Virus record (IMG/VR): IMGVR_UViG_2061766007_000583
DNA length: 20,000 nucleotides
From: an uncultured virus (IMG/VR IMGVR_UViG_2061766007_000583)
Lineage: Duplodnaviria; Heunggongvirae; Uroviricota; Caudoviricetes
Strand: one strand, 5' to 3'
The notes beneath the pieces are model-generated. The model was not told the origin of the DNA and did no database searches. It saw nothing but the letters and a program-made list of their open reading frames with translations. Position numbers and translations under genes: made by a program. Of the stretch, positions 2,724-20,000 are shown in pieces (the first letter of the stretch is position 1; the number at the start of each line of letters is the position of its first letter).

Positions 2724-2733
2724 ATTTTGAAAA

Positions 2734-3778: not shown

Positions 3779-3802
3779 AAAAGGGCTTTAAGCCCTTTTT
3801 TT
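3777..3802. terminator. Bidirectional intrinsic terminator
   Basis: AAAAAAGGGCT-tta-AGCCCTTTTTTT. Confidence 0.85.
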
Positions 3803-3851
3803 ATTTTCTGTTTTTGTTTGTTTTAAGTCCTACAATGTAGGATTTTTTAAT

Positions 3852-3956
3852 ATACCTTTAAAACGTCATATTTTGACGTGTACGGCGTTTTAATTGCTTT
3901 ATTGATAAAATATACCATAAACGAAAAAACGTACGAAATAAAGCCAAATTTTGCGT
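3852..3956 (+). repeat. Dispersed ~106-bp element, copy B
   Basis: ATACCTTTAAAACGTCA...TTGATAAAATATACC (3902-3916)...AGCCAAATTTTGCGT. Confidence 0.75.
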
Positions 3957-3958
3957 CG

Positions 3959-4063
3959 GTTATGATAGACTAACTTTATATACTGGTTAGTCATAACTAA
4001 CCTATATAGTTTGGTTAGTCAACACTAACCAAAATCTGATATCATAAGTTAGTTATAACTAAC
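3959..4063. repeat. Cluster of four GTTAG-N6-CTAAC boxes
   Basis: 3959-3974 (1 mismatch), 3986-4001, 4014-4029, 4048-4063. Confidence 0.85.
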
Positions 4064-4141
4064 CAAAATCAGAATTGAAATCCAAAACCACTTTCACAAT
4101 TTACCGTGCTAAAGTGTTTCTGATATTCAAATATCAGAAAG

Positions 4142-4155
4142 CGAACATATGTTTG
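4142..4155. promoter_or_regulatory. LexA/DinR (Cheo) SOS box-like site
   Basis: CGAACATATGTTTG. Confidence 0.55.
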
Positions 4156-4438
4156 CCCCAATCCCCCATTAGGGTAATGCCGTAATGCGAAATTTTAACG
4201 GCTTGGCGATTCGCCCTTATGCGTGTGCGTATATGTATATAAGTACATAATTATAGATATATACAGTTAAATATAACCGATATAATATTAATATTGAATT
4301 ATAATTCAAATTCATAATTCAAATTCAATTTTGTAATTGATAATTAGAATTTATATGTATATACGTATATACATTTCTGATATTTAAATATCATAATCAA
4401 ACATAAAATAAAAAGGGTTTTTCAACCCTTTTTATTTT

Positions 4439-4666
4439 TTAAATTTCGTCATAATTTTCAAAATAGCCTATTAACTTTTCGCCGTTGTAATAAACTTCAA
4501 GATAATCGCCGTTATCGTATTCTACAGAACCGATAAACTTATCAAACAAGGGTGATACTTCATCTTTGTCAACAACTTCAACGAATAAATCAAACTCATA
4601 CATATCAGTATTAACATTGTAAAGTGAATTAACTTCAATAACTTCATTACCTAAAAATTTTTTCAT
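4439..4666 (-). CDS. Small acidic hypothetical protein (probable start MKKFLG)
   Basis: ORF track 4439-4699; AAGGA/AAGG RBS precedes the ATG at 4666; own promoter and terminator. Confidence 0.75.
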   Translation of the reverse strand: MKKFLGNEVIEVNSLYNVNTDMYEFDLFVEVVDKDEVSPLFDKFIGSVEYDNGDYLEVYYNGEKLIGYFENYDEI

Positions 4667-5147
4667 AACCTTAAATTCCTTTCTGTATTCGTGAACCATT
4701 TCACAATACTAGAATAACAAAACCCTTTTATGTTGTCAATACATTTTTAAAAAAAATTTTAAAAAATTTTATCCGACATAGTTACACTCTGATATTTAAA
4801 TATCAGAAATTCTGTTTTTGTTTTTGATTTCTGTTTCTGTTTTTAAATTCAAAATCAAATTCAAGTTTGAAATCAAATTCAAATTCGAAAATAAAATATA
4901 TATATTTAAGTTTGAAATCAAAAACAGAATTTATATTCATATTCTAAAATCAAAATTAGAATCCAAAACCATATTATATTATTATAAATCATTTAACGGC
5001 TCTGTATTGAGTTTAAATATATCAGCCGATAAAAACTACAGTAATAATATTAAAATCAAATATAGGTCAAAATAAAGCGTTATTGCTGATATTCAAATAT
5101 CAGATTGAAATACAATATAAAAAAGGCTTTTCAGCCTTTTTTATATT

Positions 5148-5225
5148 TCAGCATACACTGTTTTGAAGAGGACTTGCAAGGTGAAACATATTTCTGTTAA
5201 GGAGTTCTCTTTTAATTCTATTCAT
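5148..5225 (-). CDS. 25-aa peptide MNRIKRELLNRNMFHLASPLQNSVC
   Basis: Only ORF in a complete promoter(5299-5327)/terminator(5118-5143) unit; GAAAGAAGG RBS. Confidence 0.5.
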   Translation of the reverse strand: MNRIKRELLNRNMFHLASPLQNSVC

Positions 5226-5502
5226 AAAAACCTTCTTTCCGACCCTTTAGGTCTAAATCTAAACTATTCGCAACACGTAAGCATTACCTTACAATAATAT
5301 AATATCAAATTGCTGATATATTGTCAACAATTTTTTAAAAAATTTTTTACGCCCAATTTTTTTAGTCGGCATTTCGCTGTACACCGATATTTAAATATGA
5401 GAAGTTTGTTATAATTTTAATAATAAATATTTTAATATTCAAATTTGTTTTTACNNNNNNNNNNAATTAAATACAAAAATAAAAAAGGGCAGTTGCCCTT
5501 TT

Positions 5503-5880
5503 TTATAAACTGTAAAGATAATTCCAAAACTCTTCGGCTTCTTCGTATGATTTGCCATAGAAATACATTTCGTGTCCTATATAGGTCTCTTTTTCTCCAA
5601 ATTTCTCTTCTATTTGATTTTTGAATCCACGAATTACATTAGATACTATATTATCACAAGATTTAACGCATTCCTTAACTTCTTCTTCAGTAACAAAACC
5701 CAAACGAGAAGCACCATATAAATCGCTATAAATATCGTTGACTTTTCTATCTAATTGAGTAGTAACCAAATTCTGTAATTTAATAGCCTTTATTACAGTA
5801 TCGGCTGAATAAAAATGCTTTTCGAATCTTTCAATTGCTTCGTTTGTTGCAGTGAATAATAATGTTTCAACTAATTTCAT
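5503..5880 (-). CDS. Hypothetical phage protein
   Basis: 125 aa, AAGGAG RBS, own promoter and terminator. Confidence 0.85.
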   Translation of the reverse strand: MKLVETLLFTATNEAIERFEKHFYSADTVIKAIKLQNLVTTQLDRKVNDIYSDLYGASRLGFVTEEEVKECVKSCDNIVSNVIRGFKNQIEEKFGEKETYIGHEMYFYGKSYEEAEEFWNYLYSL

Positions 5881-6472
5881 AACCTTAATCTCCTTATTAA
5901 ATAAAAATCTGTTAACGTGTGTTCGTCTTTCGACAATACAATCATATCAAACGGCTACAGTATTGTCAATAAAAAACTGCACAAAATTTTTAAATTTTTT
6001 TGTGCATTCTTGACTGCACTATGTTCGTGTCTGATATTTAAATATCAGAAATATCAAAANNNNNNNNNNTTCCGTCTTTCGACAATACAATCATATCAAA
6101 CGGCTATAGTATTGTCAATAAAAAACTGCACAAAATTTTTAAAATTTTTTGTGCAGTTTTGACTGCACTATGTTCGTGTCTGATATTTAAATATCAGAAA
6201 TATCAAAACAGATATGTAAATATCGTATTGTAATTATAAAATCGCCCTTGCGAAATCGTGCGTTGGGTAATTCGCTAATCGCCAATCGTTTGCCGACTGC
6301 CGAGATATAGTAATGATATAATAGTACATAATATTATATATATACAGTTATATATAACTGATACTGATATTTAAATATATTTATTCATAAAGCGAAAAAT
6401 AAAAAGGACTTCGAAATTCGTTTTCGAAATCCTTTTTGAAAGAAGGTAGGTTATGAAAGAAAATTTTACTTG

Positions 6473-6694
6473 TTAGCCGTTGAATTTGTCGATTACATAT
6501 CCACCGTCGTGACCTTGTTTCCAATAATGATAAACGCCGTTGGTGTCGTCAAATTCGATATAAATTCCACCGTCGTCACCATAATCTGCTTGAAAGAAAA
6601 TCTTTGCGACTTCGAAAGTTCTTCCTTGAGCGTGAATCTTGTCACCGACTTCAACTTCGTGAACAGTCTCGTAACCGATATTTTTAATAATCAT
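6473..6694 (-). CDS. Small acidic beta-rich hypothetical protein
   Basis: 73 aa, AGGAAGG RBS, TTGACA-17-TATAAT promoter 6748-6776. Confidence 0.85.
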   Translation of the reverse strand: MIIKNIGYETVHEVEVGDKIHAQGRTFEVAKIFFQADYGDDGGIYIEFDDTNGVYHYWKQGHDGGYVIDKFNG

Positions 6695-7098
6695 ATTTTT
6701 ATTTCCTTCCTAAAATGTTTTGTTCCCTTTGTTTATCTTACAAACTTATTATATAACATAATAATAAATTTGTCAATAGTTTTTTGAAAAATTTTTTTTG
6801 TTTACTAAAATAAACATTTGTTTGCTTTTTGTTTAAAATATTAAACATTTCTGATATTTAAATATGATAAGCCTGCTGCCACTTTAGTTAATTAAAGCGT
6901 TAAAGTTTACATAAATAGTTTACATAATATAAAAATCTAATTTACTAAAAAATTTGTTTTGAGAGTAAAAAATAAAATCTAGATTTAATTTATTCAGATT
7001 TAAAATTCAATTTCAAAATTAAATCTGATATTTAAATATCAAAATCGAAATCAAAAATAAAAAACCGAAATCATAATTGAAATCGGTTTTTATTTTCG

Positions 7099-7470
7099 TT
7101 ATGAGCAATAATACAAATCGTCTTCTATCTCTGTTAACTCTGTATCAGTAAACATTCTATGAAGTGCCTTTGAAGTTTTGCCACATTCTTTATAAATGCT
7201 TTTCGCTTCTTCTACACTGTAACCAAATTCATTTGCAAAATTTGTTAAATCTAAAGCGTTATCATATGCTTCCATATCACCAATTAAGCAATTCATAACT
7301 TCTTCTAATTTAGGCATTACATAATCAGTATTACACTGATACTCGAATTTATAACTCTTTCTGTTATAAATTATCTTTCCTGCAAAAATAGTGTGATTAC
7401 TTGTAAACTGTTTACTTTTAGGATTCTCTGCTTCTTCATAACTAAATTTAATCTTGTCTAAAATCATCAT
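7099..7470 (-). CDS. Hypothetical phage protein (P-x-L-x-x-V-x-x-CL-x-x-D...F-x-x-EFGY pattern)
   Basis: 123 aa, AAGGAAGG RBS. Confidence 0.85.
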   Translation of the reverse strand: MMILDKIKFSYEEAENPKSKQFTSNHTIFAGKIIYNRKSYKFEYQCNTDYVMPKLEEVMNCLIGDMEAYDNALDLTNFANEFGYSVEEAKSIYKECGKTSKALHRMFTDTELTEIEDDLYYCS

Positions 7471-7657
7471 AACTTTGTACCTTCCTTTTCTGTTTTTGAT
7501 TATAACTTATTCTAACATATAAATTTTTTATTGTCAATAGTTTTTTTAAAAAAAATTTAAGCAAAAATTTTTTACGTTTTATCACTCCGATATTCAAATA
7601 TCATATTGGTTTACATAATATAATTACAGTTCAACCAACATAAACTGTAATCGTAAT

Positions 7658-7763
7658 ATACCTTTTAAAGTCACCAGAAGCCCCAAATTCGAACGAAAAC
7701 ATATTCTTTGATAAAATATACCTTAAAATAGTTTTCGTTCAAATATGAGCCAAATTTTGCGTT
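7658..7763 (+). repeat. Dispersed ~106-bp element, copy C
   Basis: ATACCTTTTAAAGTCACCAGAA...TTGATAAAATATACC (7708-7722)...GAGCCAAATTTTGCGTT. Confidence 0.8.
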
Positions 7764-7779
7764 TTAAGACTATATCGCC

Positions 7780-7929
7780 CTAGCGATACTCTGAAAAGAC
7801 TTTTTGTTCATACTCGTCCCAATTCTTCTGCACCTTTGATTCAAGGCATACAACACCAAATATAAAGCATAAAAGCAATGAAAAGCATATTAAACAAAAT
7901 TTCACATTCTTAATCTGTTCTTGATTCAT
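7780..7929 (-). CDS. 49-aa single-pass membrane peptide (start MNQEQ)
   Basis: AAAGGAGG RBS before ATG 7929; hydrophobic stretch FCLICFSLLLCFIFGVVCL. Confidence 0.8.
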   Translation of the reverse strand: MNQEQIKNVKFCLICFSLLLCFIFGVVCLESKVQKNWDEYEQKVFSEYR

Positions 7930-8045
7930 AACACGTCCTCCTTTATTAACTAATATAATATTAACATAAATATTATATTTTGTCAAGTATAAAATTAATA
8001 TTGTCTGATATTTAAATATCAGCGTTTAGTAATAAAAAAAGACCT

Positions 8046-8186
8046 TTAATCAAGGTCTTTCTGCAACTCTCTTTTAAGTCGTTTTCTGTCGTAATCCTTC
8101 GGCGATTTATGAGAGCGTGTTCCAGTGTTAAAGGGTACTAACACTCTATGCTTTTTATTCTTTTCTTTTAACTGTTTTTTTGTCAT
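8046..8186 (-). CDS. 46-aa basic peptide, possibly BrfA/ArfA-like ribosome-rescue factor (MTKKQLKEKNKKHRVLVPFNTGTRSHKSPKDYDRKRLKRELQKDLD)
   Basis: Hand-translated; AAGGAAGG RBS; stop lies in the terminator loop; family call from recalled motif similarity only. Confidence 0.6.
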   Translation of the reverse strand: MTKKQLKEKNKKHRVLVPFNTGTRSHKSPKDYDRKRLKRELQKDLD

Positions 8187-8517
8187 TTCTTTTAACCTTC
8201 CTTTTAATTAATNNNNNNNNNNNNNNNNNNNNNNNNNNNNNNNNNNNNNNNNNNNNNNNNNNNNNNNNNNNNNNNNNNNNNNNNNNNNNNNNNNNNNNNN
8301 NNNNNNNNNNNNNNNNNNNNNNNNNNNNNNNNNNNNNNNNNNNNNNNNNNNNNNNNNNNNNNNNNNNNNNNNNNNNNNNNNNNNNNNNNNNNNNNNNNNN
8401 NNNNNNNNNNNNNNNNNNNNNNNNNNNNNNNNNNNNNNNNNNNNNNNNNNNNNNNNNNNNNNNNNNNNNNNNNNNNNNNNNNNNNNNNNNNNNNNNNNNN
8501 NNGGGGTTAAAGGGGAT

Positions 8518-8823
8518 TTAGCAATCATAATCATAACAACCCATATAAGGATTAAATCCGATTTCATAATCATAGTCGTCATAGTCTTCGATTTCTTCGT
8601 CTTCGGTCAATCCTTCAAGTTCATATTGTTCGTGAAAATATGTTTCTTCAAGCATTGCTTTTTCTGTTTCGTCTGCACATTCTACAAGCATTAAAACGAA
8701 CAAATAAGCGTTTTCAAAAGTGTCGATTAAATATTCTTCTTCATAGTTGTTAACATTGATTTTAACGCCGTTTTCTACTCTGTAAATCTCATATTTGTTG
8801 CCGTTGATATTAAATTCTTTCAT
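8518..8823 (-). CDS. Highly acidic protein, possible DNA mimic
   Basis: 101 aa, D/E-rich tail EDEEIEDYDDYDYE; AAAGGAG RBS. Confidence 0.85.
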   Translation of the reverse strand: MKEFNINGNKYEIYRVENGVKINVNNYEEEYLIDTFENAYLFVLMLVECADETEKAMLEETYFHEQYELEGLTEDEEIEDYDDYDYEIGFNPYMGCYDYDC

Positions 8824-9000
8824 AGGTTTATCTCCTTTCTTGATAATACAATATTAACATAAAAGGCTTTTCTTGTCAATATAAAAATTGCACAAATTAA
8901 AATTTATTTCGTTATGCATATTTTGGTTTACATAATATTAATTTCTGATATTTAAATATCGGATTTTGGTTTACATAAAAAAAGACCCTATTGGGTCTTT

Positions 9001-9354
9001 TTAGTATAGCGTTTCGTCGTATCTAACGGCGATTGTTTCATCCATTCTAGCGTGTCCACGCTCAATGGCTTCGTGTCTGTCTTTAGCACTAGCAAGACAA
9101 CTCAAGCCGTTCTGTATTAAAAACTCGTTTAAATGTTTCGAAGTGGTTTTAGAATAGTTGTAATCCCTTCCAAAAGTTACAACTTTTCTAAATCCTAATC
9201 CACCTTCAGTGGCGATTTCACATACTCTAGAATCGTATGACTGAAATGCTACATAGGGTTTGTTGGTTACATTAGAATTATAATGTAATATAAACTGATT
9301 TGCGTTAGCGTTGCCGTTGGCGTTGATTAACTGTGATACTAAAATTTCTGACAT
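9001..9354 (-). CDS. Hypothetical phage protein (NQF...FQSY-x-S...YSKTT-x-K-H motif family)
   Basis: 117 aa, AAAGG RBS, own promoter and terminator. Confidence 0.85.
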   Translation of the reverse strand: MSEILVSQLINANGNANANQFILHYNSNVTNKPYVAFQSYDSRVCEIATEGGLGFRKVVTFGRDYNYSKTTSKHLNEFLIQNGLSCLASAKDRHEAIERGHARMDETIAVRYDETLY

Positions 9355-9539
9355 ATTACTTTTACCTTTCGAACCTATTTTTATCGGTTCGCCTTTCGTA
9401 TTTGATAATACAATTATAACATATACATTTTTAAAGTCAATAGTTTTGAGTAAAAAAGTTGCATAAAATTTTTAAAAGTTTTTGTGCATATTTTATAATA
9501 TATGATATTTAAATATCAGAAATAAATAATAAAAAATGG

Positions 9540-9743
9540 CTATTTCCATAGCCATTCGTATTCGTCCACGAGACGCATTTCAAGAACACAATAATAATCA
9601 TAATCGCCCCAATCACGCTCTTCATAGGCAGATTCCTGCCAACGGCGTAATTCTTCCAAACGCTTCTTATATTCGCACATAGCGTTATATGTAGCGTTTG
9701 TAAGTGTTGCAGTGATACCTTCAGAAATAATGATAGTCTTCAT
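9540..9743 (-). CDS. Small acidic hypothetical protein
   Basis: 67 aa, AAGGAG RBS. Confidence 0.8.
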   Translation of the reverse strand: MKTIIISEGITATLTNATYNAMCEYKKRLEELRRWQESAYEERDWGDYDYYCVLEMRLVDEYEWLWK

Positions 9744-9902
9744 AAAATTTATCTCCTTTTTAAATACAATGTTTTCTTAACTTCTATAATTATAATATCA
9801 CAATATAATAATTGTGTCAACACTTTTTTAAAAAAAATTTTTAATTTATTTTTAAGTATGATATTTAAATATCAGAATAACAAATAAAAAAAAGAAAAGG
9901 CT

Positions 9903-10052
9903 TTATTCAGCCTTTTCAATCATTCTTGCTTTTGTAACTTCAGCAACTGCTTTCTGTCTTCTTCTGTACTCTTCAGCCGTCGGTTTGTTAAACGGCTCTA
10001 TAACCTTTTCAAATCCTACAATTTTTTTGTTCTCAATAATCGCTCTTGTCAT
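9903..10052 (-). CDS. 49-aa peptide MTRAIIENKKIVGFEKVIEPFNKPTAEEYRRRQKAVAEVTKARMIEKAE
   Basis: Hand-translated; AAAGGAG RBS; stop lies in the terminator loop. Confidence 0.75.
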   Translation of the reverse strand: MTRAIIENKKIVGFEKVIEPFNKPTAEEYRRRQKAVAEVTKARMIEKAE

Positions 10053-10067
10053 AATTTTAATCTCCTT

Positions 10068-10136
10068 TTAAATGTTTTGTTTACGTTTAATAAGTTCTTC
10101 GTGAGTGTTCATAAAGTTTCCGATTGATTCAACCAT
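10068..10136 (-). CDS. Possible 22-aa leader peptide MVESIGNFMNTHEELIKRKQNI
   Basis: Short ORF between the promoter (10195) and the 49-aa gene; weak RBS. Confidence 0.3.
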   Translation of the reverse strand: MVESIGNFMNTHEELIKRKQNI

Positions 10137-10304
10137 TCACCCTATTACTTCCGTTCCCTTATCTTGATTATATATTATCATATTATGATATATAAGTCAA
10201 TACTTTTTTGAAAAAATATTGCACAATTTTTTTAAAATTTTTTGTGCATATTTTTTATTTATGATATTCAAATATCAGAATTGAAAACAAAAAAATAAAA
10301 GGGT

Positions 10305-10433
10305 TTACACCCTTTTATAATATTCAAGCCACGTCAAAGCGTTTGTTTCGTCGTCAAGGTCATACAATTCAATACCTTCTTTAATCATTTCGTCATAAGT
10401 TAAAATGTTTCCGTTCTGTAAATTCATAAACAT
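10305..10433 (-). CDS. 42-aa acidic peptide MFMNLQNGNILTYDEMIKEGIELYDLDDETNALTWLEYYKRV
   Basis: Hand-translated; AAAGGAGG RBS; own promoter and terminator. Confidence 0.8.
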   Translation of the reverse strand: MFMNLQNGNILTYDEMIKEGIELYDLDDETNALTWLEYYKRV

Positions 10434-10540
10434 AGGCTTTGCCCTCCTTTATTATGTTATAAGTATAACATAATATTATAATATTGTCAAGTATTATTTT
10501 TATATTGTCTGATATTTAAATATCATATTTTACGCAAACA

Positions 10541-10762
10541 AAAAAAGCAAACCGAATCTTATTACTGACGTTTGCTTCTTGTGATAGACCTTGAGTGCAT
10601 TAGGGGTCTATCGTGGTCTGATTTGCTAGGCTCAAAGCCTACACGCCCAAACGATTTAAAAATCGTTACACCCGACCTAAAAGCGTGTCCCAACGGATAT
10701 TGTATGACTAACAGTCAGTTAAGGGGGACTTCTCATAACTCCTTGCTCCTTTTTTTTATTAT
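10541..10762 (-). ncRNA. Candidate ~220-nt structured RNA
   Basis: Promoter 10769-10797, terminator about 10541-10579, only a 5-codon ORF (10719-10736), several perfect stems, higher GC than flanks. Confidence 0.6.
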
Positions 10763-10830
10763 GTATATATAATATCACAATATAAAAACATTGTCAATAC
10801 TTTTTTTAAAAAAATTTTTTAAAAAAATTT

Positions 10831-10936
10831 AACGCAATATTTGGCTCTGTATTGCGTTTAATTTAATTAGGTATAGATTTATACCTAAAATAATATAAAA
10901 TTAAATGTAGGGCATTCTGTGACGTTTAAAAGGTAT
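10831..10936 (-). repeat. Dispersed ~106-bp element, copy D (inverted)
   Basis: Reverse complement reads ATACCTTTTAAACGTCACAGAATGCCC...AAACGCAATACAGAGCCAAATATTGCGTT. Confidence 0.8.
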
Positions 10937-11015
10937 TGTATGATTTACTGTATATGTTTTTACAATATATAAATATGATATTTAAATATCAATTACGAAA
11001 CAAAAAAATAAGGGA

Positions 11016-11402
11016 TTACTCCCTTATTTCAAATTCCTTGTAATGGTCATATTTGAGTTTAAATACATTCAAGTCAATTTCTGCATTAACTTCTACACCG
11101 ATATAACCATCTTTTACATAGGTGGATTTAAACTCCTTGTAAATATCAATCGTTGTCAATTCGTTTAAATTGAATTTTAAAATTTCTTCAACAAGTTTTT
11201 CATTTTTAAATTCTCCAAACAACTGATTGATTAAACTGAATTTTGACATTAAGTCTTCTACATAAAATTCTAAATCAATACCGTCTTCGCTAATCATTTG
11301 TTTTGCTCTTCTTACAATATAATCAATAGGGTCTTCGCTACAATTGATTAATTCGTTAACTTCGATTTCAGGATAAATATTATACTTGAGTTTTAAATTC
11401 AT
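11016..11402 (-). CDS. Acidic hypothetical phage protein
   Basis: 128 aa, AAGGAG RBS. Confidence 0.85.
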   Translation of the reverse strand: MNLKLKYNIYPEIEVNELINCSEDPIDYIVRRAKQMISEDGIDLEFYVEDLMSKFSLINQLFGEFKNEKLVEEILKFNLNELTTIDIYKEFKSTYVKDGYIGVEVNAEIDLNVFKLKYDHYKEFEIRE

Positions 11403-11543
11403 ATTTTTGTTCTCCTTTTCTTTTGATACTATAACTATATCATATTATAATATAGTTGTCAATACTTTTTTTTGAAAAATTTTTATTTTATGATATTTAA
11501 ATATCATAATTAATCAAAAATAATAAAGGGATTTCTCCCTTTA

Positions 11544-11912
11544 TTATTTTATCAATCTTGATATTATCCACATTAAGCCTTGTATATATTCTTTTTCTAG
11601 TGTATCATAAGTTACACTGTCAAGAAAATATTCGTCTACGTCTTCGCTATAAACGTCAAAGTAAATTATTACTTCTTTAGGATTATAATAATTAAAATAA
11701 ATATATCCTAAATTATTCCACGTTTCAACACGGACAATATTTGCCATTTTTGATTCTGTTTCTGCAATAGGTATTCTGTCAACTTCAATAGTAGTCTTAT
11801 ACTTTTCTTGATACTCTTTAAGTGTTTCTATATCTCTTACATTCATAAAGATTGAAACAACTTCGTGATAATCTCTTTTAATTTCTTCAAGTGTTGGTGT
11901 TGTAATATTCAT
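11544..11912 (-). CDS. Hypothetical phage protein
   Basis: 122 aa, AAAGGAG RBS. Confidence 0.85.
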   Translation of the reverse strand: MNITTPTLEEIKRDYHEVVSIFMNVRDIETLKEYQEKYKTTIEVDRIPIAETESKMANIVRVETWNNLGYIYFNYYNPKEVIIYFDVYSEDVDEYFLDSVTYDTLEKEYIQGLMWIISRLIK

Positions 11913-12054
11913 TTTTAAATCTCCTTTGTTATTTGATAATAATAATATATCATATTACAACATATTTGTCAAGTGTTTTATAACATATTTGTTAAATTTC
12001 TGATATTTAAATATCATATACCTAGTAAAATAAAAAAGTGGGTTGCCCCACTTT

Positions 12055-12324
12055 TTATGCTTTAGTTACATATTCAAGTAAACCTTCGTATAAATCGTTT
12101 ACGTTTTTTCCTTCCATTTTAGAATTAATTGTCGGCATATATTTTCCTTCGCCTTTACAGTAAAATAAAATAACTCCGTCTTCGTCAAACACCATATAAT
12201 CGCAAGACTTCGGCACGTTACCTTGAAGTCCCCAAAGTTTTAATAAAGAACTTGCGAGACCTTCCATAATTGTTTTAACTTCTCCGTTCTTTCTTGTGAA
12301 TAATACTGAATAATTGTTCTTCAT
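12055..12324 (-). CDS. Hypothetical phage protein
   Basis: 89 aa, AAAGGAG RBS. Confidence 0.85.
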   Translation of the reverse strand: MKNNYSVLFTRKNGEVKTIMEGLASSLLKLWGLQGNVPKSCDYMVFDEDGVILFYCKGEGKYMPTINSKMEGKNVNDLYEGLLEYVTKA

Positions 12325-12437
12325 AATTTTAATCTCCTTTAATGTTTTGTTTTATCTTATGTATACATTATATCATATTACAATAAATTGTCAACACTTT
12401 TTTGAAAAAAATTTAAAAAATATTTTTAAAAAACCTA

Positions 12438-12467
12438 TTGACAAAACAATAATAAATGTGTTATAAT
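12438..12467 (+). promoter_or_regulatory. Orphan plus-strand sigmaA promoter with no downstream ORF
   Basis: TTGACA-18-(TGt)TATAAT facing palindrome 12505 and terminator 12536-12557. Confidence 0.6.
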
Positions 12468-12557
12468 GGAATTGATACCAAATTATACAACAATATTGTA
12501 CAATATGATATTTAAATATCAGAAAACAGACAAAAAGAAAAAGCCTTTCGGCTTTTC

Positions 12558-12782
12558 CTAGTCAATCTCTTTCAAGATTGTTTTTGCTTTTAAAATTAAG
12601 TCATAATCTTCGCACTCGTCAAGTACCATATAACAATAATCCTTGATTGCTTTAGGGTCATTATCAAGTGTATCTTCGATATAAGCAAGTGGCTCGAAAT
12701 CGAATGAAATATCTTCATATGAGTAAGGGTCAAAGTCTTTCATTAAATTGTCGATTAAAAAAATTAACTGTTCTTTGTTCAT
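12558..12782 (-). CDS. Small highly acidic protein
   Basis: 74 aa, D/E-rich, AAAGGAG RBS. Confidence 0.85.
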   Translation of the reverse strand: MNKEQLIFLIDNLMKDFDPYSYEDISFDFEPLAYIEDTLDNDPKAIKDYCYMVLDECEDYDLILKAKTILKEID

Positions 12783-12937
12783 AATGTTTTCTCCTTTGTT
12801 AACAATGTTTTGTTTTATTTGATAATACTATTATAACACCTTGATTTTATATGTCAATACTTTTTTAAAAATTTTTTTCAAAAAAATTTTATTTTATGAT
12901 ATTTAAATATCATAAAGTGTTAGAATTAAAAATGGCT

Positions 12938-13117
12938 TTAAGCCATTTCTAATTCATAGATAATTCTTTCAGCACTTGCTAAATTTGAATAAATTCTAGC
13001 ATAACTGTAATCTGTAACATATTTAGCAACGCCACGATAATAACTTTTTAAATAAAGTTTTCTTCCTTCTTCGATTTTAAAAATCTTGTAGCCATTCCAA
13101 ACTCTTAATGTTTTCAT
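12938..13117 (-). CDS. 59-aa protein MKTLRVWNGYKIFKIEEGRKLYLKSYYRGVAKYVTDYSYARIYSNLASAERIIYELEMA
   Basis: Hand-translated; AAAGGAG RBS; own promoter (13173) and terminator. Confidence 0.8.
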   Translation of the reverse strand: MKTLRVWNGYKIFKIEEGRKLYLKSYYRGVAKYVTDYSYARIYSNLASAERIIYELEMA

Positions 13118-13261
13118 TTGATTGTTGCTCCTTTCCTTTAACTATATATACTATATCATATTATAATATTCTTGTCAATATGTTTTTGAAAAATATTTTT
13201 ATTTTCTGATATTCAAATATCAGCGACAATAAAAAAAAGAAAAGGGCTTTTCGCCCTTCTC

Positions 13262-13765
13262 TTAAATCTTTTCTCCACTCTCGATAGCGTTTACACACTT
13301 TTCATATCCTTTATATTTACTGAAAAGTCTTAATCCGTCAAGTGTTTTAAGGTTTAATTCATTACCCCTTAAATCTCTACATTTAACCACCATTGATTTA
13401 GGATTATCAAATCTCTTTTCGTAACTGTTTACAAGTTTTGTAATTGACTGAAAACCTTGTATTTCGTTACCAATGAATTTAGCATTTCCAAAGTTATCAT
13501 ATTTAGGTGCGTATCCTAAAGATTCAAGCCAAGCAGTAATATCAGCAGTGGGATTTTTAACGCTCAACTCAAGTGTATAATAAGAACTTGTTGCCTTATC
13601 ACTTGCAGTGTTTGTTGCAATTCTCTTCATTGCTTTGTGCTTTGCTTCTTCTTCACAGTGGGGACAAACAAAACCATAATTCTTCTGTCCACGATAAACC
13701 TTTTTACATAAACTCTTGTGAATTTCTACTCCACAACCTACACAATTAACCATAACTTTTGACAT
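13262..13765 (-). CDS. Zinc-finger (2x CxxC) phage protein
   Basis: 167 aa, CVGC...CPHC, AGGAGG RBS. Confidence 0.85.
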   Translation of the reverse strand: MSKVMVNCVGCGVEIHKSLCKKVYRGQKNYGFVCPHCEEEAKHKAMKRIATNTASDKATSSYYTLELSVKNPTADITAWLESLGYAPKYDNFGNAKFIGNEIQGFQSITKLVNSYEKRFDNPKSMVVKCRDLRGNELNLKTLDGLRLFSKYKGYEKCVNAIESGEKI

Positions 13766-13941
13766 AATTTTAATCCTCCTTTTTGGATTTCTTGTTTGTT
13801 TTTATCTTACAATACATATTATATACTATTAGTTTTTATTTGTCAATACTTTTTTTAAATTTTTTAAAATTTTTTTTCTTACAATATTTTCTGATATTCA
13901 AATATCAGAATCAAAATCGAAAAAAGAATAGGACTTTCGCC

Positions 13942-14268
13942 CTATTCAAAAATCTCGTATAAAGATTTTTTATAATTCCATTCGCCTTTTACTTGCATTT
14001 CTGCATAGTATGTAGCCATTTCATAGAGTTTCAAAATACTATCAGTTTCTAAAATCAATTCCCAATCTCTAGGGCAAAATGCTTGATATTCGGATTTTGC
14101 ACTCTTATAAACGATTCCAGAGTATAACCAATTTTGACCATAATCGAAATAAATATCTTCAACTGTTAACCTAAAATCCGACACTACAGTATTTACAAAT
14201 ACACAAAACGATTCAAGTCTTATTCTTTCAACTGTACCCATTGTATAAGTTTTAATTTTATTAGCCAT
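13942..14268 (-). CDS. Hypothetical phage protein
   Basis: 108 aa, AAGGAGG RBS. Confidence 0.85.
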   Translation of the reverse strand: MANKIKTYTMGTVERIRLESFCVFVNTVVSDFRLTVEDIYFDYGQNWLYSGIVYKSAKSEYQAFCPRDWELILETDSILKLYEMATYYAEMQVKGEWNYKKSLYEIFE

Positions 14269-14439
14269 TTTCTGACCCTCCTTTATTTTATATACTTATT
14301 ATATAGGATTAAAATTTATTTGTCAATACTTTTTTTAAAAAATATTTTTATATACATNNNNNNNNNNNNNNNNNNNNNNNNNNNNNNNNNNNNNNNNNNN
14401 NNNNNNNATTAAAAAGGGACTTATAAAGTCCCTTTTATT

Positions 14440-14751
14440 TTACCACAATTCCGATTCAACAACTTCTCTTTGTACGGCAACTGATTCTTGATTAAGAATT
14501 TTTTTAATGTTTTCAACAATCTCTTTTACTGTAGTTTTTTCGATAAACATTAATTCAATTCTTAATGTTTTTTCGGTTACAAAACTGCCGTCGTCGTGCT
14601 TGTAAATTCCGTCGGCTTCAAAAATTGTCGCTCCGTCTGTATAAGATAATAATAATTTCTTAATTATCTTATATGCTTCAAGTGTTGATACTTCTTGAAT
14701 TTTTGTGTCCTTGTCATTAAGTCCTACATAAAGTGTAAATTTTTCAATCAT
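14440..14751 (-). CDS. DUF3574-like / phage SAM-lyase (SAMase)-like protein
   Basis: 103 aa with G-x-T...G-x-Y...EKT-x-R...QESV-x-V motif order, similar to T3 SAMase (GCY...EEKTVRV...EQDCVLV) as recalled. Confidence 0.6.
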   Translation of the reverse strand: MIEKFTLYVGLNDKDTKIQEVSTLEAYKIIKKLLLSYTDGATIFEADGIYKHDDGSFVTEKTLRIELMFIEKTTVKEIVENIKKILNQESVAVQREVVESELW

Positions 14752-15185
14752 TTTGGTTGCCTCCCTTGTTTTGATTATGGACTAATTATATCATACCATT
14801 TCTAACTTGTCAAGAAAAAAATGCACAAATTTTAAAAATTTTTTTGTACAATTTTACCACACTGTATATTACATTCTGATATTTAAATATCAGAAAAAAT
14901 CATACTATACTTATACAACGCAATATTTCGCCCTATATGGCGTTTTATATTTTACCCCTTGCGTAATGCGTGAAAATAAATTAAGTGCCGAGCCGAGCCG
15001 TATAATGCGTTATACATATATATTATACATAATTATAGATAAGTATAGTTATATATAACTGATATTCTAATATCATATATACAATAAAGAAAAAAGGCAA
15101 TGCATTTTGCAAAGCCTTTTTTCAAACTCAAAACATTGTATAGGAGGGTTTTATGCCAAAGCAACTTTCGTTGCTTATTGCCATT

Positions 15186-15518
15186 TTATAATTCAGATAA
15201 AGGAACATAAATCTTTTCAATTTCAGATTCAGAATCTGAATCGTCTTCTTCATCTTCTTCTTCGTCGTCGTCCCAATAATCGTCTTCATCTTCTTCTTCA
15301 GTATCAAGACCAATTTGTTCAAAAATCCATTCATCTTCGAACCATAAAAGGTCATTTACTTCTGTCATTGTTGGAATTTCATCGCCATAATATGATTCAA
15401 GAAAGTTCATTAATTCATCTTCGTAACCATATTCTTCAACTGTTTTAAGAGTATCTTCTGCACCACTCCAACAAGCATTAACTAAATCATTAAAATCATA
15501 ATAATTCTTAATTTCCAT
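15186..15518 (-). CDS. Extremely acidic protein, possible DNA mimic
   Basis: 110 aa, WSGA...VNDLLWFE core plus a poly-D/E tail; AAGGAG RBS. Confidence 0.85.
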   Translation of the reverse strand: MEIKNYYDFNDLVNACWSGAEDTLKTVEEYGYEDELMNFLESYYGDEIPTMTEVNDLLWFEDEWIFEQIGLDTEEEDEDDYWDDDEEEDEEDDSDSESEIEKIYVPLSEL

Positions 15519-15792
15519 TTTGTTATCTCCTTTTGTTCTTTTCCTTACCTTGTAAATACATTATAGCATATTACTTTTAATTTGTCAAGCATTTTTTTTA
15601 TTTTATTTTTGCTTTTTTATATTTACTTTCCGTTCCCTTATTTGTTAAATACATTATAGCATAAGTATAAAGTTTTGTCAAGAAAAAGTTTTAAATTCAA
15701 AATCGAGTTTGGAATCATATATGATATTTAAATATCAGAATTTGATAAATGAAAAACGGATTCAAATTCGAAAATCAGAATCCGTTTTGTTT

Positions 15793-16197
15793 TTAGTCTT
15801 TTAAATTAACATATCCAAGTATATATTCTTCATCAGAATAAATCTTGTTGTTTGACGGATAATCACAACTAACATTAAATACTAAACCTTCTTTTTCTGC
15901 AAGTTTTAATACTTCACGTACTGCATAATCATAAGGCATTCTTCTTGTTTTGCAAAAACTAAATTCGTCAAGTTCGTCATTATTAAGAACAAAACTCTCA
16001 CAATATAATTTTTTATCGCTATTTGCATTGCCATTAAAAGCGATTCTATCAACTGTAATTGTGGGTGCATCTTGTCCATCCCAGTCTCTAATAGCAATCC
16101 CTTTTTTAGCACAATCTTTTAAAATCTCTCTAACACTATTACAAAATTCTTCAGTAATAGGTTTAGTTGTTCTTGTCCAATATCTTGTAAAACCCAT
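15793..16197 (-). CDS. Hypothetical phage protein (MG[FY]T-x-YW...FNG...FCKT-x-R-x-PYD motif family)
   Basis: 134 aa, AAGGAG RBS, second gene of a two-gene unit. Confidence 0.85.
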   Translation of the reverse strand: MGFTRYWTRTTKPITEEFCNSVREILKDCAKKGIAIRDWDGQDAPTITVDRIAFNGNANSDKKLYCESFVLNNDELDEFSFCKTRRMPYDYAVREVLKLAEKEGLVFNVSCDYPSNNKIYSDEEYILGYVNLKD

Positions 16198-16208
16198 ATC
16201 TTTCTCCT

Positions 16209-16424
16209 TTACTCTCCTAATAACATTCTTCTGTCTTCATCATAATAAAAAGTTCTTGTTTTGGTAGTTATTTTATACATACCATTGTTATTATTCTTAA
16301 CGCAATCATAAACTTTAAGTCTATCTGCTACTTCTAATTGATAGCCTACTTCGTTTAAACTGCATTCGGAATAAATAATTTCCATATTTGTTTTACCATC
16401 AGTGGTTGAGTACCATCTTCTCAT
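16209..16424 (-). CDS. Hypothetical phage protein
   Basis: 71 aa, AAGGAGG RBS. Confidence 0.8.
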   Translation of the reverse strand: MRRWYSTTDGKTNMEIIYSECSLNEVGYQLEVADRLKVYDCVKNNNNGMYKITTKTRTFYYDEDRRMLLGE

Positions 16425-16625
16425 ATCTGTTTCCCTCCTTCGATAATACTACTATATCATATTATAATAAATTTGTCAATAGTTTTTTTTATTCTTTTTA
16501 AAAATTTTTTTATTCGCTTTAAGATAATTTAAAGCGAATAACTGATATTTAAATATCAGAATACAAAATAAAAAACAGTCGCAAGGCTTTTGACCTCACG
16601 ACTGCAACAAAGGAAGGTAACAAAA

Positions 16626-17243
16626 TTATGAATAAAAACTTCTCGCTTGATTGAAAAGTTTATTCTGCATATTTTCTTTAGTGGGTTTTTCGTTTTCTAT
16701 TCTAGGTAAACCATAAACCTTGTTAACAAAATTCGGAATTGTAGAATATCTTTTGATAATCTGTTTGTGTACTTCGGCTTCTGTTCTTTTATCGTTTGGA
16801 ATAACCCAATCATTCCAATTTCTATAATAGTCAACGCCTTTATCATTAAGTATTTTAATTTCAAAATTACAACTTCCGTCGTGGTGACTGCAATGTACGA
16901 ACAAGTGTCCGTTTTCGTCATAGATTTTATAATTCCAACAATCTTCAATCATACTGAAAAATGCGTCTTTAAAATCTCCAAAGATTTTTCCACCACTATA
17001 AACGCCGTCCCACCTTCCGATACTACCAAAACAAATTATCTCTTTGTCTTCAAAGAATCTTGATAATTCTTCAAGTGTGATATCAAAATCCATTGCACAA
17101 ATATCATAAGCACAATTCTCGATTTCGTCGTCGTCAAATTCTTCTCCACTCTCTTTTAAACATTCTTCTGCATCTTTGAAATATACGTCCATATCGTAAT
17201 TATCAAAGATAATTCTTTCTTTAGCAATAGTGTTCTTTCTCAT
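16626..17243 (-). CDS. Hypothetical phage protein (G-x-IGRWDG...HHDG motif family)
   Basis: 205 aa, GGGAGG RBS, own promoter. Confidence 0.85.
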   Translation of the reverse strand: MRKNTIAKERIIFDNYDMDVYFKDAEECLKESGEEFDDDEIENCAYDICAMDFDITLEELSRFFEDKEIICFGSIGRWDGVYSGGKIFGDFKDAFFSMIEDCWNYKIYDENGHLFVHCSHHDGSCNFEIKILNDKGVDYYRNWNDWVIPNDKRTEAEVHKQIIKRYSTIPNFVNKVYGLPRIENEKPTKENMQNKLFNQARSFYS

Positions 17244-17310
17244 ATAAAAGCCCTCCCTTTTGTTTATATAACTATATTACCATACAATGTTTATTTTGTC
17301 AAGTACTTTT

Positions 17311-17532
17311 TTAACAATTACACCAAAAATCTTCTTCAACAAAACTTATGTGTCCGTATGCCTTTTCAAGAATTGAATAAGGAATATCGTCTGCATAAGA
17401 TAAATTATTAATAAATTCAACGTCTTCAGCCGATAAATCAAAATCAATATTATCAGAATAAAATAATTCTTCCTTTAATTGTATTAATTCGTCTTCAGTG
17501 CATTCATTTAAACCAAAATAAGTATCTCTCAT
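17311..17532 (-). CDS. Small acidic protein (probable start MRDTYF)
   Basis: AAGGGAG RBS before ATG 17532; C-terminal FVEEDFWC. Confidence 0.8.
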   Translation of the reverse strand: MRDTYFGLNECTEDELIQLKEELFYSDNIDFDLSAEDVEFINNLSYADDIPYSILEKAYGHISFVEEDFWCNC

Positions 17533-17696
17533 AATTGTTCTCCCTTCTTGAGTATATACATAGTATATCATATTATGTTTTTCTTGTAAATAGTTTTCAG
17601 TAAAATTTTATAAAAAATTTATAATTGTATGATATTTAAATATCAAAATTAATTTCAAAATCTGATATTCAAATATCATATATTATCCATAAAATA

Positions 17697-18254
17697 AAAA
17701 AGGACTTGTCACCTACCACAAGTCGCTTTTACTTTACATTGTTAACAGTTACAGTTAAAGGGAAAGTATCGCCACAATACTTTCCCTTTAACTTTTTCTA
17801 TACCCTATTGTACTTCTAGGCTATAGGTGGCTATGGTTTTATGCTTTTCTTTTACAACCTTGCACGGACACCTATCCACTTGGTTGACACGCTTTTTATT
17901 CCGTCTAAAAACTCTGTATATCAAAACTGACTCTCTTAACGCAATGTTACGGCACTTTTTATACTAGGTATGAAAATATGCGAACAAAATTTCTACCTCT
18001 CTTAACGCAATTTTACGATTCGTTTCTCTCGGTCTGTAAACGCAATCAAATCTCTACCTATCTTCACGCAATCTTACGCTCATAGGTTTTCACTAGGATA
18101 TAAAACCTTTAGTAATTAAAATTTCTACCTATCTTTAAGAGTATTATCTATGAGTATTACCATTTTAACACTCTAGGCAATATTTACCAACTTTTGGCAG
18201 TCAACCTATCTTAACGCAATTTTACGAGAAAAACTATAACGTCTTTTTTATTAT
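17697..18254 (-). ncRNA. Candidate ~550-nt non-coding RNA with five internal direct repeats separated by hairpin spacers
   Basis: Perfect TTGACA-17-TATAAT promoter (18261-18289), terminator 17703-17724, no ORF of 60 aa or more and no obvious RBS-ATG; repeats at 17931, 17997, 18058, 18129 (degenerate), 18206. Confidence 0.7.
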
Positions 18255-18297
18255 GTATTTATTATAACATAATCATTTTTATTTGTCAAGTACTTTT

Positions 18298-18657
18298 TTA
18301 ATAATTTCTTAAATTTATTAAAACTTTTTCGTACTCAACTAAAAACTTATCGTTATCGAAAATATCTTCAAGGGCAAGTCTTCTCTTATCAGTTAATTTT
18401 GTATAGCCGTTTTCTTCCTTGAATTTGTTTTCAAGATATTTTCTACGATTATCAATCAATTCACGTACTGCACCACACATAACAGTCTGAAATCTGTAAC
18501 ATTCCCACGTTCTGTTAGAATAGTTACAAGTATGTTTTACCTTTTCAACATTATTAATAAATAATGTTGTATCGTGTGCGAATCCGTGTCTAGTGTTTCT
18601 GTACTCGTTTACAAATTCATATTCTTTGTCGCCTACAGTAAATTTTTTAATTTCCAT
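18298..18657 (-). CDS. Hypothetical phage protein (R-x-GF-x-H...NRTWE-x-Y-x-FQ motif family)
   Basis: 119 aa, AAGGAGG RBS. Confidence 0.85.
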   Translation of the reverse strand: MEIKKFTVGDKEYEFVNEYRNTRHGFAHDTTLFINNVEKVKHTCNYSNRTWECYRFQTVMCGAVRELIDNRRKYLENKFKEENGYTKLTDKRRLALEDIFDNDKFLVEYEKVLINLRNY

Positions 18658-18691
18658 TTTTGTTCCCTCCTTTGTTTACTGTAATTATATA

Positions 18692-18919
18692 TTACCACAA
18701 ATCAAATTCAATGTCAAGATATTTTATTAAATTTGTTAAAATTTCTTTTAAGTCTTCATTATGATAAGGCATTGCAGTTTTTATTGCATTATTTGGATTA
18801 TCTTCTACATAATATATATAGATATATCCGTTATTAATATCAATTTTATCTACAAACTTATATATATCTTTTAATATATTATTTAAATGATTTAATTCTT
18901 TAATAGTAATAATGGTCAT
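18692..18919 (-). CDS. Hypothetical phage protein
   Basis: 75 aa, AAAGGAAG RBS; the next promoter is embedded in its 3' end. Confidence 0.75.
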   Translation of the reverse strand: MTIITIKELNHLNNILKDIYKFVDKIDINNGYIYIYYVEDNPNNAIKTAMPYHNEDLKEILTNLIKYLDIEFDLW

Positions 18920-19109
18920 ATCTTTGTACTTCCTTTCTTTAATCTAAAACTAGAATATCATATAATTTTTATTTTGTCAATAAGGAATTTTATATTATCT
19001 GATATTCAAATATCAATATAGTTTTGAATATTGTAATATTGAATTTCTGATATTTAAATATCAGAAATTCAAAACATAAAAAGGAATAGGATTTCCTATT
19101 CCCTTTTCA

Positions 19110-19325
19110 TTATCTCCCAGCCTTTGCCTTTAAGTCCAAGAAAGTCTCTTTGTATTTTCGGCACTCTTCGGCAATATCTTTTATTGTGCTGAAATTGTCC
19201 CACTTGCAACCGTCGGCAGTATAGACAGTATATTCGTTTACTACTCTGCCTTTACGAACTGAATAATAGCAAGTACGAGCAATATGTATTCCGTATGTAT
19301 TTTCCAAATAAGGTTTACTAATCAT
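19110..19325 (-). CDS. Hypothetical phage protein
   Basis: 71 aa, ATGA overlap with the upstream gene, AAAGGAG RBS. Confidence 0.8.
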   Translation of the reverse strand: MISKPYLENTYGIHIARTCYYSVRKGRVVNEYTVYTADGCKWDNFSTIKDIAEECRKYKETFLDLKAKAGR

Positions 19326-19519
19326 TCTTTTACTCCTTTATTCAATTCACTCTTAATAAGATTAAGACTATATTGCATAGAATCAATTAAAGACATTCCG
19401 TATAAACAAGCGTCTTCAAAAGTATCTTCTTCAGCCATTTCAATTTCGTCTCTGATATACTCGCAATCAAGTCTTACACTTTCAAGTTTGTCCATTACCT
19501 TTTCTAAATCAACATTCAT
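19322..19519 (-). CDS. Small acidic helical protein
   Basis: 65 aa, AAGGAAGG RBS. Confidence 0.8.
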   Translation of the reverse strand: MNVDLEKVMDKLESVRLDCEYIRDEIEMAEEDTFEDACLYGMSLIDSMQYSLNLIKSELNKGVKE

Positions 19520-19585
19520 AATTAAAACCTTCCTTTCGTGTTTTCGATAATACTAATATATCATATATCAATTAATTTGTCAATA

Positions 19586-19771
19586 CTATTGTGTAAAATA
19601 TTTTTCATTAATTGATTTTGCCATAGTCTCACCATATTTATTTATATAATCAATAATGAGATTCTGTTCTTCTTCTGTATAATCATTATCGTCACATATT
19701 CTATAATATGCTACAGAAATCGCCGTTAATAAAGTATCTTTTGCAATTGCTTTTGCTTCTGTTTTCTTCAT
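19586..19771 (-). CDS. Hypothetical phage protein
   Basis: 61 aa, AAGGAG RBS, promoter at 19825. Confidence 0.8.
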   Translation of the reverse strand: MKKTEAKAIAKDTLLTAISVAYYRICDDNDYTEEEQNLIIDYINKYGETMAKSINEKYFTQ

Positions 19772-20000
19772 AATTCGTCTCCTTCCTTCGAACCTAAACC
19801 AATCTTATCACATTCAGATTCGTTTGTCAATAGGTTTTTTAAATCGTCTGATATTTAAATATCAGATTTAAATCAAAATCAGAATCAATTTCGATATTGA
19901 AATATTAAATTGATTTTCTAAAAACTGACCGATTATGTTTACGAAATCGCATATGCGTTTATCGTCGAGCGTTGCCGAGTTATTAATATATTATATATAA

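Follow-up and report, generated by a model that had tools for sequence, protein, structure and literature searches.

The window analysed here is a stretch of 20,000 nt from an uncultured virus of the Caudoviricetes (IMG/VR record IMGVR_UViG_2061766007_000583), and the element in question is a cassette on its minus strand, at positions 17697 to 18289. A promoter and an intrinsic terminator enclose about 560 nt without a credible open reading frame (ORF), and the cassette represents a new and genuine family of phage RNAs, structured and modular, from the cattle rumen. This protein-free transcription unit is structured and conserved, and it combines a frozen core with a modular array, in which a short repeat (the handle) alternates with hairpins. 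The parts of the cassette are listed in Table 1, together with features shared with a related metagenome locus, L053.

Table 1. Parts of the RNA cassette in the order of the transcript, in window coordinates
Feature	Position	Strand	Remarks
Promoter	18261..18289	-	TTGACA-17-TATAAT with TG extension; score 12/12; same architecture and place in L053
Handle copy 1	18196..18226	-	3' end diverged to GGUUGACUGCC
Spacer hairpin E	18142..18183	-	16 bp with a bulge and a mismatch, CCUAG in 5' arm; -10.8 kcal/mol, z -2.8
Handle copy 2, degenerate	18119..18149	-	3' half CUCUUAAAGAUAGGUAGAAAU only; 68% to the reference copy
Spacer hairpin A	18085..18107	-	GGUUUU/AAAACC stem, CCUAG loop; -2.7 kcal/mol, z -0.9
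Handle copy 3	18048..18078	-	
Spacer hairpin B	18017..18047	-	GAUU-g-CGUUU/AAACG-AAUC, CCGAG loop; -3.2 kcal/mol, z -0.8
Handle copy 4	17987..18017	-	Reference copy
Spacer hairpin C	17952..17981	-	Apical CCUAG; -4.4 kcal/mol, z -2.3
Handle copy 5	17921..17951	-	Continues into the conserved core
3' core, about 110 nt	17826..17935	-	P1 hairpin (17884-17924) and second domain with GGAUAGGUGUCC; covered by RNA-library contigs
Hairpin H1	17798..17826	-	Covarying stem, conserved 9-nt loop GAAGUACAA
Hairpin H2	17754..17792	-	Perfect 18-bp stem, conserved apex AUUGUGGCGRU
Intrinsic terminator	17696..17726	-	Hairpin 17724..17703, covarying stem (4 compensatory pairs), conserved GUAGGU loop, then U-run

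The initial annotation, made from the letters alone, had described a perfect promoter and a terminator around no sizeable ORF, and this was borne out by a sigma-70 score of 12/12 and by 39 aa as the length of the longest frame on the transcribed strand. Six ORFs of at least 20 aa existed within 17690-18297, and the largest on the transcribed strand was a 39-aa TTG frame (17924-17805), whose start lies 337 nt past the -10 element. The RNA itself would start near 18254, judging from the position of the -10 element. The relative gave no sign of an intact protein gene in this place either, as the cassette of L053 was likewise free of ORFs.

Five handle copies (29-31 nt) were present, starting at the upper coordinates given for them in Table 1. 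Their spacings of 77, 71, 61 and 66 nt and the degenerate second copy are those that the initial annotation had read, and the repetition is beyond chance in shuffles: an 18-mer of the handle, with at most three mismatches allowed, occurred four times against 0.04 expected, and at least four occurrences were reached in 0 of 200 shuffles. The 5' part of the handle could form a mini-hairpin of 4 bp (CGUA-NNNN-UGCG), and among the nine full handles of the window and L053 all differences in the first 12 nt were confined to the four loop positions of this mini-hairpin. The 3' part is purine-rich, UUAAGA(G/U)AGGUAGAAAU (UUAAGAKAGGUAGAAAU), and downstream of each handle comes an A/U-rich single-stranded stretch, AGAAAUUUU. 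GA(U/G)AGGU was found six times on the minus strand of the 20 kb, with five of the six in the cassette. UAGGU also occurs in the core (within GGAUAGGUGUCC) and in the terminator loop, where it is unchanged in L053 though the terminator stem covaries. Outside the two cassettes, the 20-kb window and the 5.5-kb L053 contained no further handle box. The truncated form of copy 2 was seen in RNA-library variants as well, with a loose contig end at 18136.

Three spacer hairpins with a common loop motif had also been proposed, and A, B and C fold as drawn (loops CCUAG, CCGAG and CCUAG), yet they are weak (Table 1). Two extra copies of CCUAG had been noted; both are present (18177 and 17820), but they lie in stems and not in loops. 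CCNAG was found 11 times on the minus strand of the window, including six times in the cassette. A 17-bp stem, the last structural element proposed, folds in fact as 18 bp (hairpin H2), with -23.1 kcal/mol and z -8.1. The fold of the whole RNA (about 560 nt) reached z -5.05 in the window and z -5.24 in L053, and it was predicted as a chain of hairpins without multistem junctions. In the window the 3' end of handle copy 1, GGUUGAC (18196-18210), is perfectly complementary to GUCAACC in the core (17883-17890). The two are predicted to pair (p 0.87), which would enclose the entire array in a single domain; no counterpart of the GGUUGAC/GUCAACC pairing was found in L053. A pseudoknot between handles and loops was considered as well and rejected, for although some units show UAGG/CCUA complementarity, the variable positions lack covariation and the predicted partners vary from copy to copy.

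L053 was found by a pattern of two handle copies, which gave at least 172 loci from metagenomes and GTDB, and it was the sole true homologue among the matches listed. This locus has 25% G+C and five handle copies. Around its ORF-free cassette stand homologues of the 75-, 119-, 73/86- and 205-aa genes of the window, and a TTGACA/TATAAT promoter and a terminator belong to the cassette itself. While flanking proteins were 58%, 55% and 57% identical between window and L053, the 3' core was identical in 105 of 110 aligned columns, with a longest unbroken run of 70. The array has been rearranged. The module order is R1-E-R2(degenerate)-A-R3-B-R4-C-R5-core in the window (R being the handle copies and the other letters the hairpin types) and leader-R1-C-R2-D-R3-B-R4-A-R5-core in L053, so that types A, B and C are common to both in a different order, with conserved arms. 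The loops of these hairpins read CCUAG, CCGAG, CCAAG or CCUUAG across the two RNAs. The L053 counterpart of hairpin A shows one compensatory pair (G-C to U-A) and the loop CCGAG, that of hairpin B has identical arms and the loop CCUUAG, and the apex of hairpin C is CCAAG in L053 and CCGAG in an RNA-library variant.

Covariation was found in the homologue, as the initial annotation had proposed to check. RNAalifold gave 53 pairs for the window and L053, among which 12 were changed on both sides and none was broken; the power of this comparison is limited, as it consists of only two sequences, and the structure was derived from those same sequences. When the partner was slid by one to three columns, only 0-2 compensatory pairs and 41-51% of the pairing were left, and 0 of 500 shuffles reached the observed values. 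In H1 five of nine pairs were changed on both sides and none was broken (z -2.9 in the window, -5.3 in L053), while H2 has in L053 a 14-bp version with a different stem sequence. In all three hairpins 3' of the core, stems differ from those of L053 and loops or apices are shared (GAAGUACAA, AUUGUGGCGRU and GUAGGU). On the opposite strand several of the G-U pairs would become A-C mismatches, which marks the minus strand as functional.

Contigs assembled from three rumen metatranscriptomes (three studies) and from one DNA run were compared with positions 17200-18800. Apart from short promoter matches, all contigs of the RNA libraries lay within 17833-18136 and none on the flanking genes, whereas the contigs of the DNA run covered the flank 17200-17754. 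The lack of RNA-library contigs in 17697-17832 and 18137-18250 is uninformative, since relatives diverge there. One contig of 172 nt was identical to the window, and the others were variants with modules missing or replaced: one linked A-R3 to R5 via a C-type hairpin with a CCGAG loop, and in others R3 was joined straight to the core or hairpin C was fused to it. These contigs fit an abundant, stable RNA family with a variable number of modules, which is to be taken as a hint only. The central proposal of the initial annotation, a protein-free unit that makes a structured multi-unit RNA, is thus supported by conservation and covariation in L053 and by RNA-library contigs restricted to the cassette.

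No known family was recognized. Rfam 15, in which the ROOL, GOLLD and OLE families are presumably included, gave no match at gathering score on the 20-kb window. ROOL, GOLLD, ToxI/CptI and CRISPR repeats had been named as models to scan for; none of them matched the window cassette or L053 at E<=10, where the cassette had five unrelated sub-threshold matches (the best with 19.2 bits, for a gathering threshold of 83) and L053 had eight (the best with 31.5 bits, for a threshold of 54, over the terminator). Copies of the cassette were absent from GenBank phages, searched as DNA in near and distant modes, and from IMG/VR, searched with four DNA patterns and two protein queries; the stretches returned from IMG/VR (1 and 83) were due to chance, and the two contigs with a distantly related protein (L002 and L003) were without the cassette. 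A two-copy pattern of a handle 11-mer, which is only part of the handle and was matched exactly, gave 51 stretches in 185,579 GTDB species genomes, none of them handle-like or CRISPR-like. In a metagenome scan with at least 118 stretches only L053 was related among the matches listed, and loci with multiple hits were unrelated tandem repeats. A two-copy search with the 3' half of the handle performed no better than its reversed control. When 221 nt of the RNA were compared by BLAST with 399 and 401 genomes of Clostridia and Bacilli, only short scattered matches of 12-25 nt were obtained, in 17 and 9 genomes (E 3e-4 to 0.01), and no RNA family existed at those sites. A full-text search of a limited literature collection found no published description of such an RNA.

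The cassette stands in an AT-rich region (G+C of 21-31% per kb) which is rich in expression signals. A consensus scan of the window gave 194 sigma-70-like promoters, where shuffles gave 131+/-11, and 15 of the 194 scored a perfect 12/12; terminator-like sites numbered 30 against 4.1+/-2.0. A separate regex scan gave 33 promoters of the TTGAC(A/T) type on the minus strand, including a small number of short tandem-promoter units, and in the longer units other than the cassette a Shine-Dalgarno sequence and an ATG gene start follow about 30 nt past the -10 element. Seven of the window ORFs had PHROG matches: six of 30 matched families of unknown function, and a seventh matched part of a homing-endonuclease family. 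The stretch was present in sequencing runs of bovine gut or rumen metagenomes from 13 studies, and the two best of these runs probably are its source. The window reads as an early or take-over module of the phage.

Several further observations concern this module. Throughout positions 1-20000 the minus strand carries at least 30 successive mono- or bicistronic units. Every unit has a TG-extended sigma-70 promoter close to consensus and a separate terminator, and between them a tiny ORF of unknown function with a strong Shine-Dalgarno sequence. A 16-bp palindrome, TGATATT(T/C)AAATATCA, occurs in 27 copies between 4121 and 19864 (for example at 17630-17645 and 17663-17678), about one or two per spacer between a terminator and the next early promoter, and three copies follow the RNA cassette of L053 (about 2490-2560 of that locus); it looks like a putative operator for a dimeric regulator that might switch the whole early module. 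At 3974-4073 a small palindromic hairpin box (GTTAGTCATAACTAAC-like) is present in three copies at 28-34 bp spacing, inside an ORF-poor stretch of 600 bp which has a bidirectional terminator on each side and forms the border between plus- and minus-strand genes. In the promoter unit 5114-5327 the sole ORF encodes 25 aa (ATG at about 5225, Shine-Dalgarno GAAAGAAGG) and is followed by a terminator; the AT-rich region after this unit (4800-5100) has short repeats in tandem and lacks a good ORF. Just downstream of the terminator 5506-5479 the sequence has ten N (5455-5464), either masked or unresolved.

Among the neighbouring genes, the 119-aa protein (18298-18657) is encoded directly upstream of the RNA promoter. 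Its structure model (predicted local distance difference test, pLDDT, of 90.9) shows a four-stranded sheet followed by three helices, and no clear structural relative was found (best Foldseek E 0.06; VIA Z <=5.5). A weak match to the PUR repeat (probability 0.69, E 0.12) gives no more than a lead towards possible binding of nucleic acids. In GenBank phages this protein had matches in Flavobacterium podophages only (41%), and relatives also exist in the two IMG/VR contigs L002 and L003; all these podophages and contigs are without the RNA cassette. A tandem repeat of 72 nt in L002 (1-829, 7-8 copies) was tried as an RNA array and rejected, since it lies inside an open frame of 275 aa and is therefore a repeat protein. 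For the 205-aa flanking protein no match was found among GenBank phages. The ORF at 17311-17571 was listed at 86 aa, though its start is probably the ATG at 17532, giving 73 aa, which has a Shine-Dalgarno sequence (AAGGGAGA) and lines up with where the L053 homologue starts; a separate, weaker promoter for this gene lies at 17590-17562. Among the eight ORFs around the cassette, Pfam and PADLOC recognised none as a member of a toxin, cas or defence family; a weak partial PADLOC match of the 75-aa ORF (18692-18919) to Csn2 (E 0.0023, 15.7 bits) is probably due to chance. No polymerase or replication gene was in view among the annotated ORFs of the window.

For the function of the RNA, a multivalent decoy or sponge that titrates or misdirects an RNA-binding protein or nuclease is the reading which we favour tentatively, its mode of action being inferred. 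The stand-alone RNA, about 560 nt long, would be an early transcript made by a host sigma-70-type polymerase on the minus strand. Its first part is the 5' array, in which each module consists of a handle and one of a few A/U-rich hairpin types, mostly with an apical CCNAG, and its second part the nearly invariant core of 110 nt, followed by three hairpins with conserved loops. The RNA would then build up to high levels and present the repeated handle, UAGGU and CCNAG to its target, which may be a host regulator or an RNA-targeting defence, and the number of modules would set the capacity of the decoy. This reading is favoured because the modules are reiterated, interchangeable and variable in number, because the motifs occur in differing structural contexts, and because the early expression signals are strong. 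A wider proposal, in our estimate unlikely, is a new class of modular decoy RNA in which the handle would recruit a host RNA-binding or RNA-cleaving protein of defence or regulation and the hairpin modules and core would mimic its natural substrates, so that one abundant early transcript might disarm RNA-targeting immunity or a global RNA regulator of rumen Firmicutes-like hosts, while recombination at the handles would tune and re-assort the modules.

Several points weigh against a decoy or sponge. Its partner protein is hypothetical, and the handle and loop motifs are without the GGA of CsrA/RsmA sponges. The AGGU motifs of the handles are mostly paired in the ensemble (unpaired probability 0.04-0.34 in the window and 0.19-0.60 in L053), and their pairing partners vary among copies and between the two RNAs, so exposure of the motif is an assumption. 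The stability of hairpins A and B does not exceed that of shuffled sequence. Compensatory changes are limited to H1, H2, the terminator and one pair of hairpin A, and with a single full-length homologue there is almost no covariation in the array and core. The assembled contigs prove neither strand nor ends nor abundance, and RNA libraries can contain DNA.

The other explanations are taken in order of falling probability. Somewhat unlikely is a precursor of several small RNAs, in which the handles would be cleavage signals for a ribonuclease of host or phage, and the freed hairpins and core would act separately, for example by base pairing of loops with transcripts. A constant element that alternates with distinct conserved hairpins does recall CRISPR and type III antitoxin precursors, the single-stranded A/U-rich AGAAAUUUU follows every handle, and the modules have been shuffled as independent units; but the loops share one CCNAG motif instead of diverse target-specific sequences, and the search against the 800 Clostridia and Bacilli genomes gave scattered short matches only. 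A guide-RNA array, one of the options in the initial annotation, is disfavoured in turn, since its 'spacers' are hairpin types shared and conserved in two divergent phages and not unique acquired sequences.

A more specific anti-defence role, in which the handles would imitate a type III antitoxin repeat or CRISPR repeat of the host and trap toxin or Cas proteins, is decidedly unlikely. Sizes would suit it, as the handle (29-31 nt) and the unit (60-85 nt) are within the range of CRISPR repeats and spacers, and the RNA has early and strong expression signals. The variable copy number could be compared with the expansion of pseudo-ToxI (PMC3594212), and repeat mimics in viral genomes, named Racrs, have been described (PMC10651486). 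Against it, no antitoxin or CRISPR-DR model of Rfam matched at E<=10, the 185,579 species genomes held no array of the handle 11-mer at such spacing, barring chance and unrelated tandem repeats, and the units are not abutting near-identical repeats but alternate with 'spacers' that are conserved structured modules. The type III antitoxin and CRISPR-repeat versions fail the structural definitions of those families.

An RNA-only architectural or 'ornate' RNA is improbable. Here the conserved loops would make loop-loop contacts and the RNA would form a folded or oligomeric particle, like ROOL, GOLLD or the pRNA of phi29. Size and habitat are like those of ROOL, the core is invariant, and conserved loops stand on covarying stems; candidate contacts could be read from complementary sequences, namely GCCAC of the core with GUGGC at the H2 apex, UACAA of the H1 loop with UUGUA of the core, and UAGGU with ACCUA of loops. 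But the models of ROOL, GOLLD and OLE were unmatched, the predicted fold is a hairpin chain and not a set of multistem junctions, and modules that are freely reshuffled and lost are hard to reconcile with a single global fold. Pairing between handles and loops also lacks covariation, as the N of the loop and the K of the handle vary independently.

Highly improbable is an element that acts at the DNA level, with the handles as tandem promoters for a phage-encoded RNA polymerase or as iterons of a transcription-activated origin. Five conserved boxes of 29-31 bp stand in the same orientation in an AT-rich spacer behind a strong promoter, in a layout (AT-rich part, specific part, ATAGG-AGA) which we take to be like that of promoters of single-subunit phage polymerases, and the origin of T7 is marked by clustered promoters. 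However, compensatory and G-U pairs directly reveal selection at the RNA level, the degenerate copy 2 is without its entire upstream half and is still conserved in variants, and the spacings of 61-77 bp are not helically phased. The lack of other boxes in the window and in L053, and of a polymerase or replication gene in view, also speaks against it.

There is a very slight probability that the RNA acts in cis in processive antitermination, like put or nut sites, and modifies the polymerase to read through the cassette and downstream early terminators. More than 30 promoter-terminator units follow one another in the region, and a module with a conserved single-stranded box and a small hairpin is loosely like boxA/boxB; but the cassette ends in a strong terminator, a separate promoter serves the next gene, Rfam gave no match, and we know of no put or nut site with five reiterated, shufflable modules or an invariant core of 110 nt.

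A leader with a small-peptide gene, whose product would be the 39-aa TTG frame or mini-ORFs after Shine-Dalgarno-like handles and whose repeats would regulate translation, is scarcely credible: although the frame is open in L053 too (34 aa), with the purine-rich AAGAGAG 6 nt upstream of the TTG, and the handles resemble weak ribosome-binding sites compared with genuine ones, no relative was found among 5.8 billion clustered proteins, with a 52-aa extension of the frame as the query, or among 1.84 billion representatives, the part shared between window and L053 has two non-synonymous and no synonymous differences beside genes at 55-58% protein identity, which argues for constraint on nucleotides, the C-terminus overlaps H1, where pairing is kept and amino acids are not, the stop codons differ, and the mini-ORFs of orthologous units are unlike in both length and sequence.

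Few phage-encoded non-coding RNAs are known to act on the host, and most of them were found by accident. In the present cassette the signs of selection on the RNA are a near-frozen core beside fast-evolving genes, compensatory changes in stems and conserved loops, and its unusual design of shufflable modules is present in cattle-rumen metatranscriptomes of several studies. If the RNA is a decoy or sponge, it would point towards a so far unrecognised RNA-binding target in rumen bacteria and towards a take-over or anti-defence strategy based on RNA; if it is an RNA-only machine, the few large RNAs of unknown function in bacteria and phages would gain one more family. In both cases the cassette is a defined and testable transcript of 560 nt.

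Compared with known systems, the cassette is like ROOL and GOLLD in its length (these being about 0.55-0.6 kb), in its association with rumen and phage, and in having no protein product and no assigned function. ROOL has an average of 581 nt, was first found in cow rumen and is often located in prophages (PMC5737381). ROOL, GOLLD and OLE have multi-junction folds, in contrast to the modular hairpin chain of the cassette, which has no covariance-model match in Rfam. Racrs and phage mini-arrays also carry conserved elements of repeat size under a phage promoter, and the inserts of the cassette are 30-55 nt. But Racrs and CRISPR arrays have unique spacers of near-uniform length, while the inserts here are the structured modules A, B and C, conserved in diverged phages; in addition, no matching host repeat was found by exact match of the handle 11-mer in GTDB, and no cas gene is nearby.

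The pseudo-ToxI of phage phiTE is, like the cassette, a repeated RNA borne by a phage and changing in copy number, and the idea of a decoy for a defence protein fits. ToxI itself consists of abutting near-identical repeats with a unit of 36 nt (PMC3594212). In contrast to ToxI/CptI/TenpI, the cassette shares 29-31 nt of each unit of 60-85 nt, and the rest is made of distinct conserved hairpins. A type III toxin-antitoxin locus also has a toxin of the ToxN/AbiQ/CptN/TenpN type directly downstream, whereas the flanks of the cassette were without a toxin family by Pfam and PADLOC; a decoy borne by a phage would have no need of such a gene. Unlike the sponge RNAs (CsrB/CsrC, RsmX/Y/Z and CrcZ), the cassette is phage-encoded, has an extra invariant core of 110 nt and would act on a hypothetical binding partner; where the sponge RNAs use GGA or CA-rich boxes, it has handles containing UAGGU and CCNAG loops, with no reiterated GGA. 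Like the cassette, these sponge RNAs are stand-alone transcripts with their own promoter and terminator, in which a short motif is reiterated in loops and linkers and the number of modules varies among relatives.

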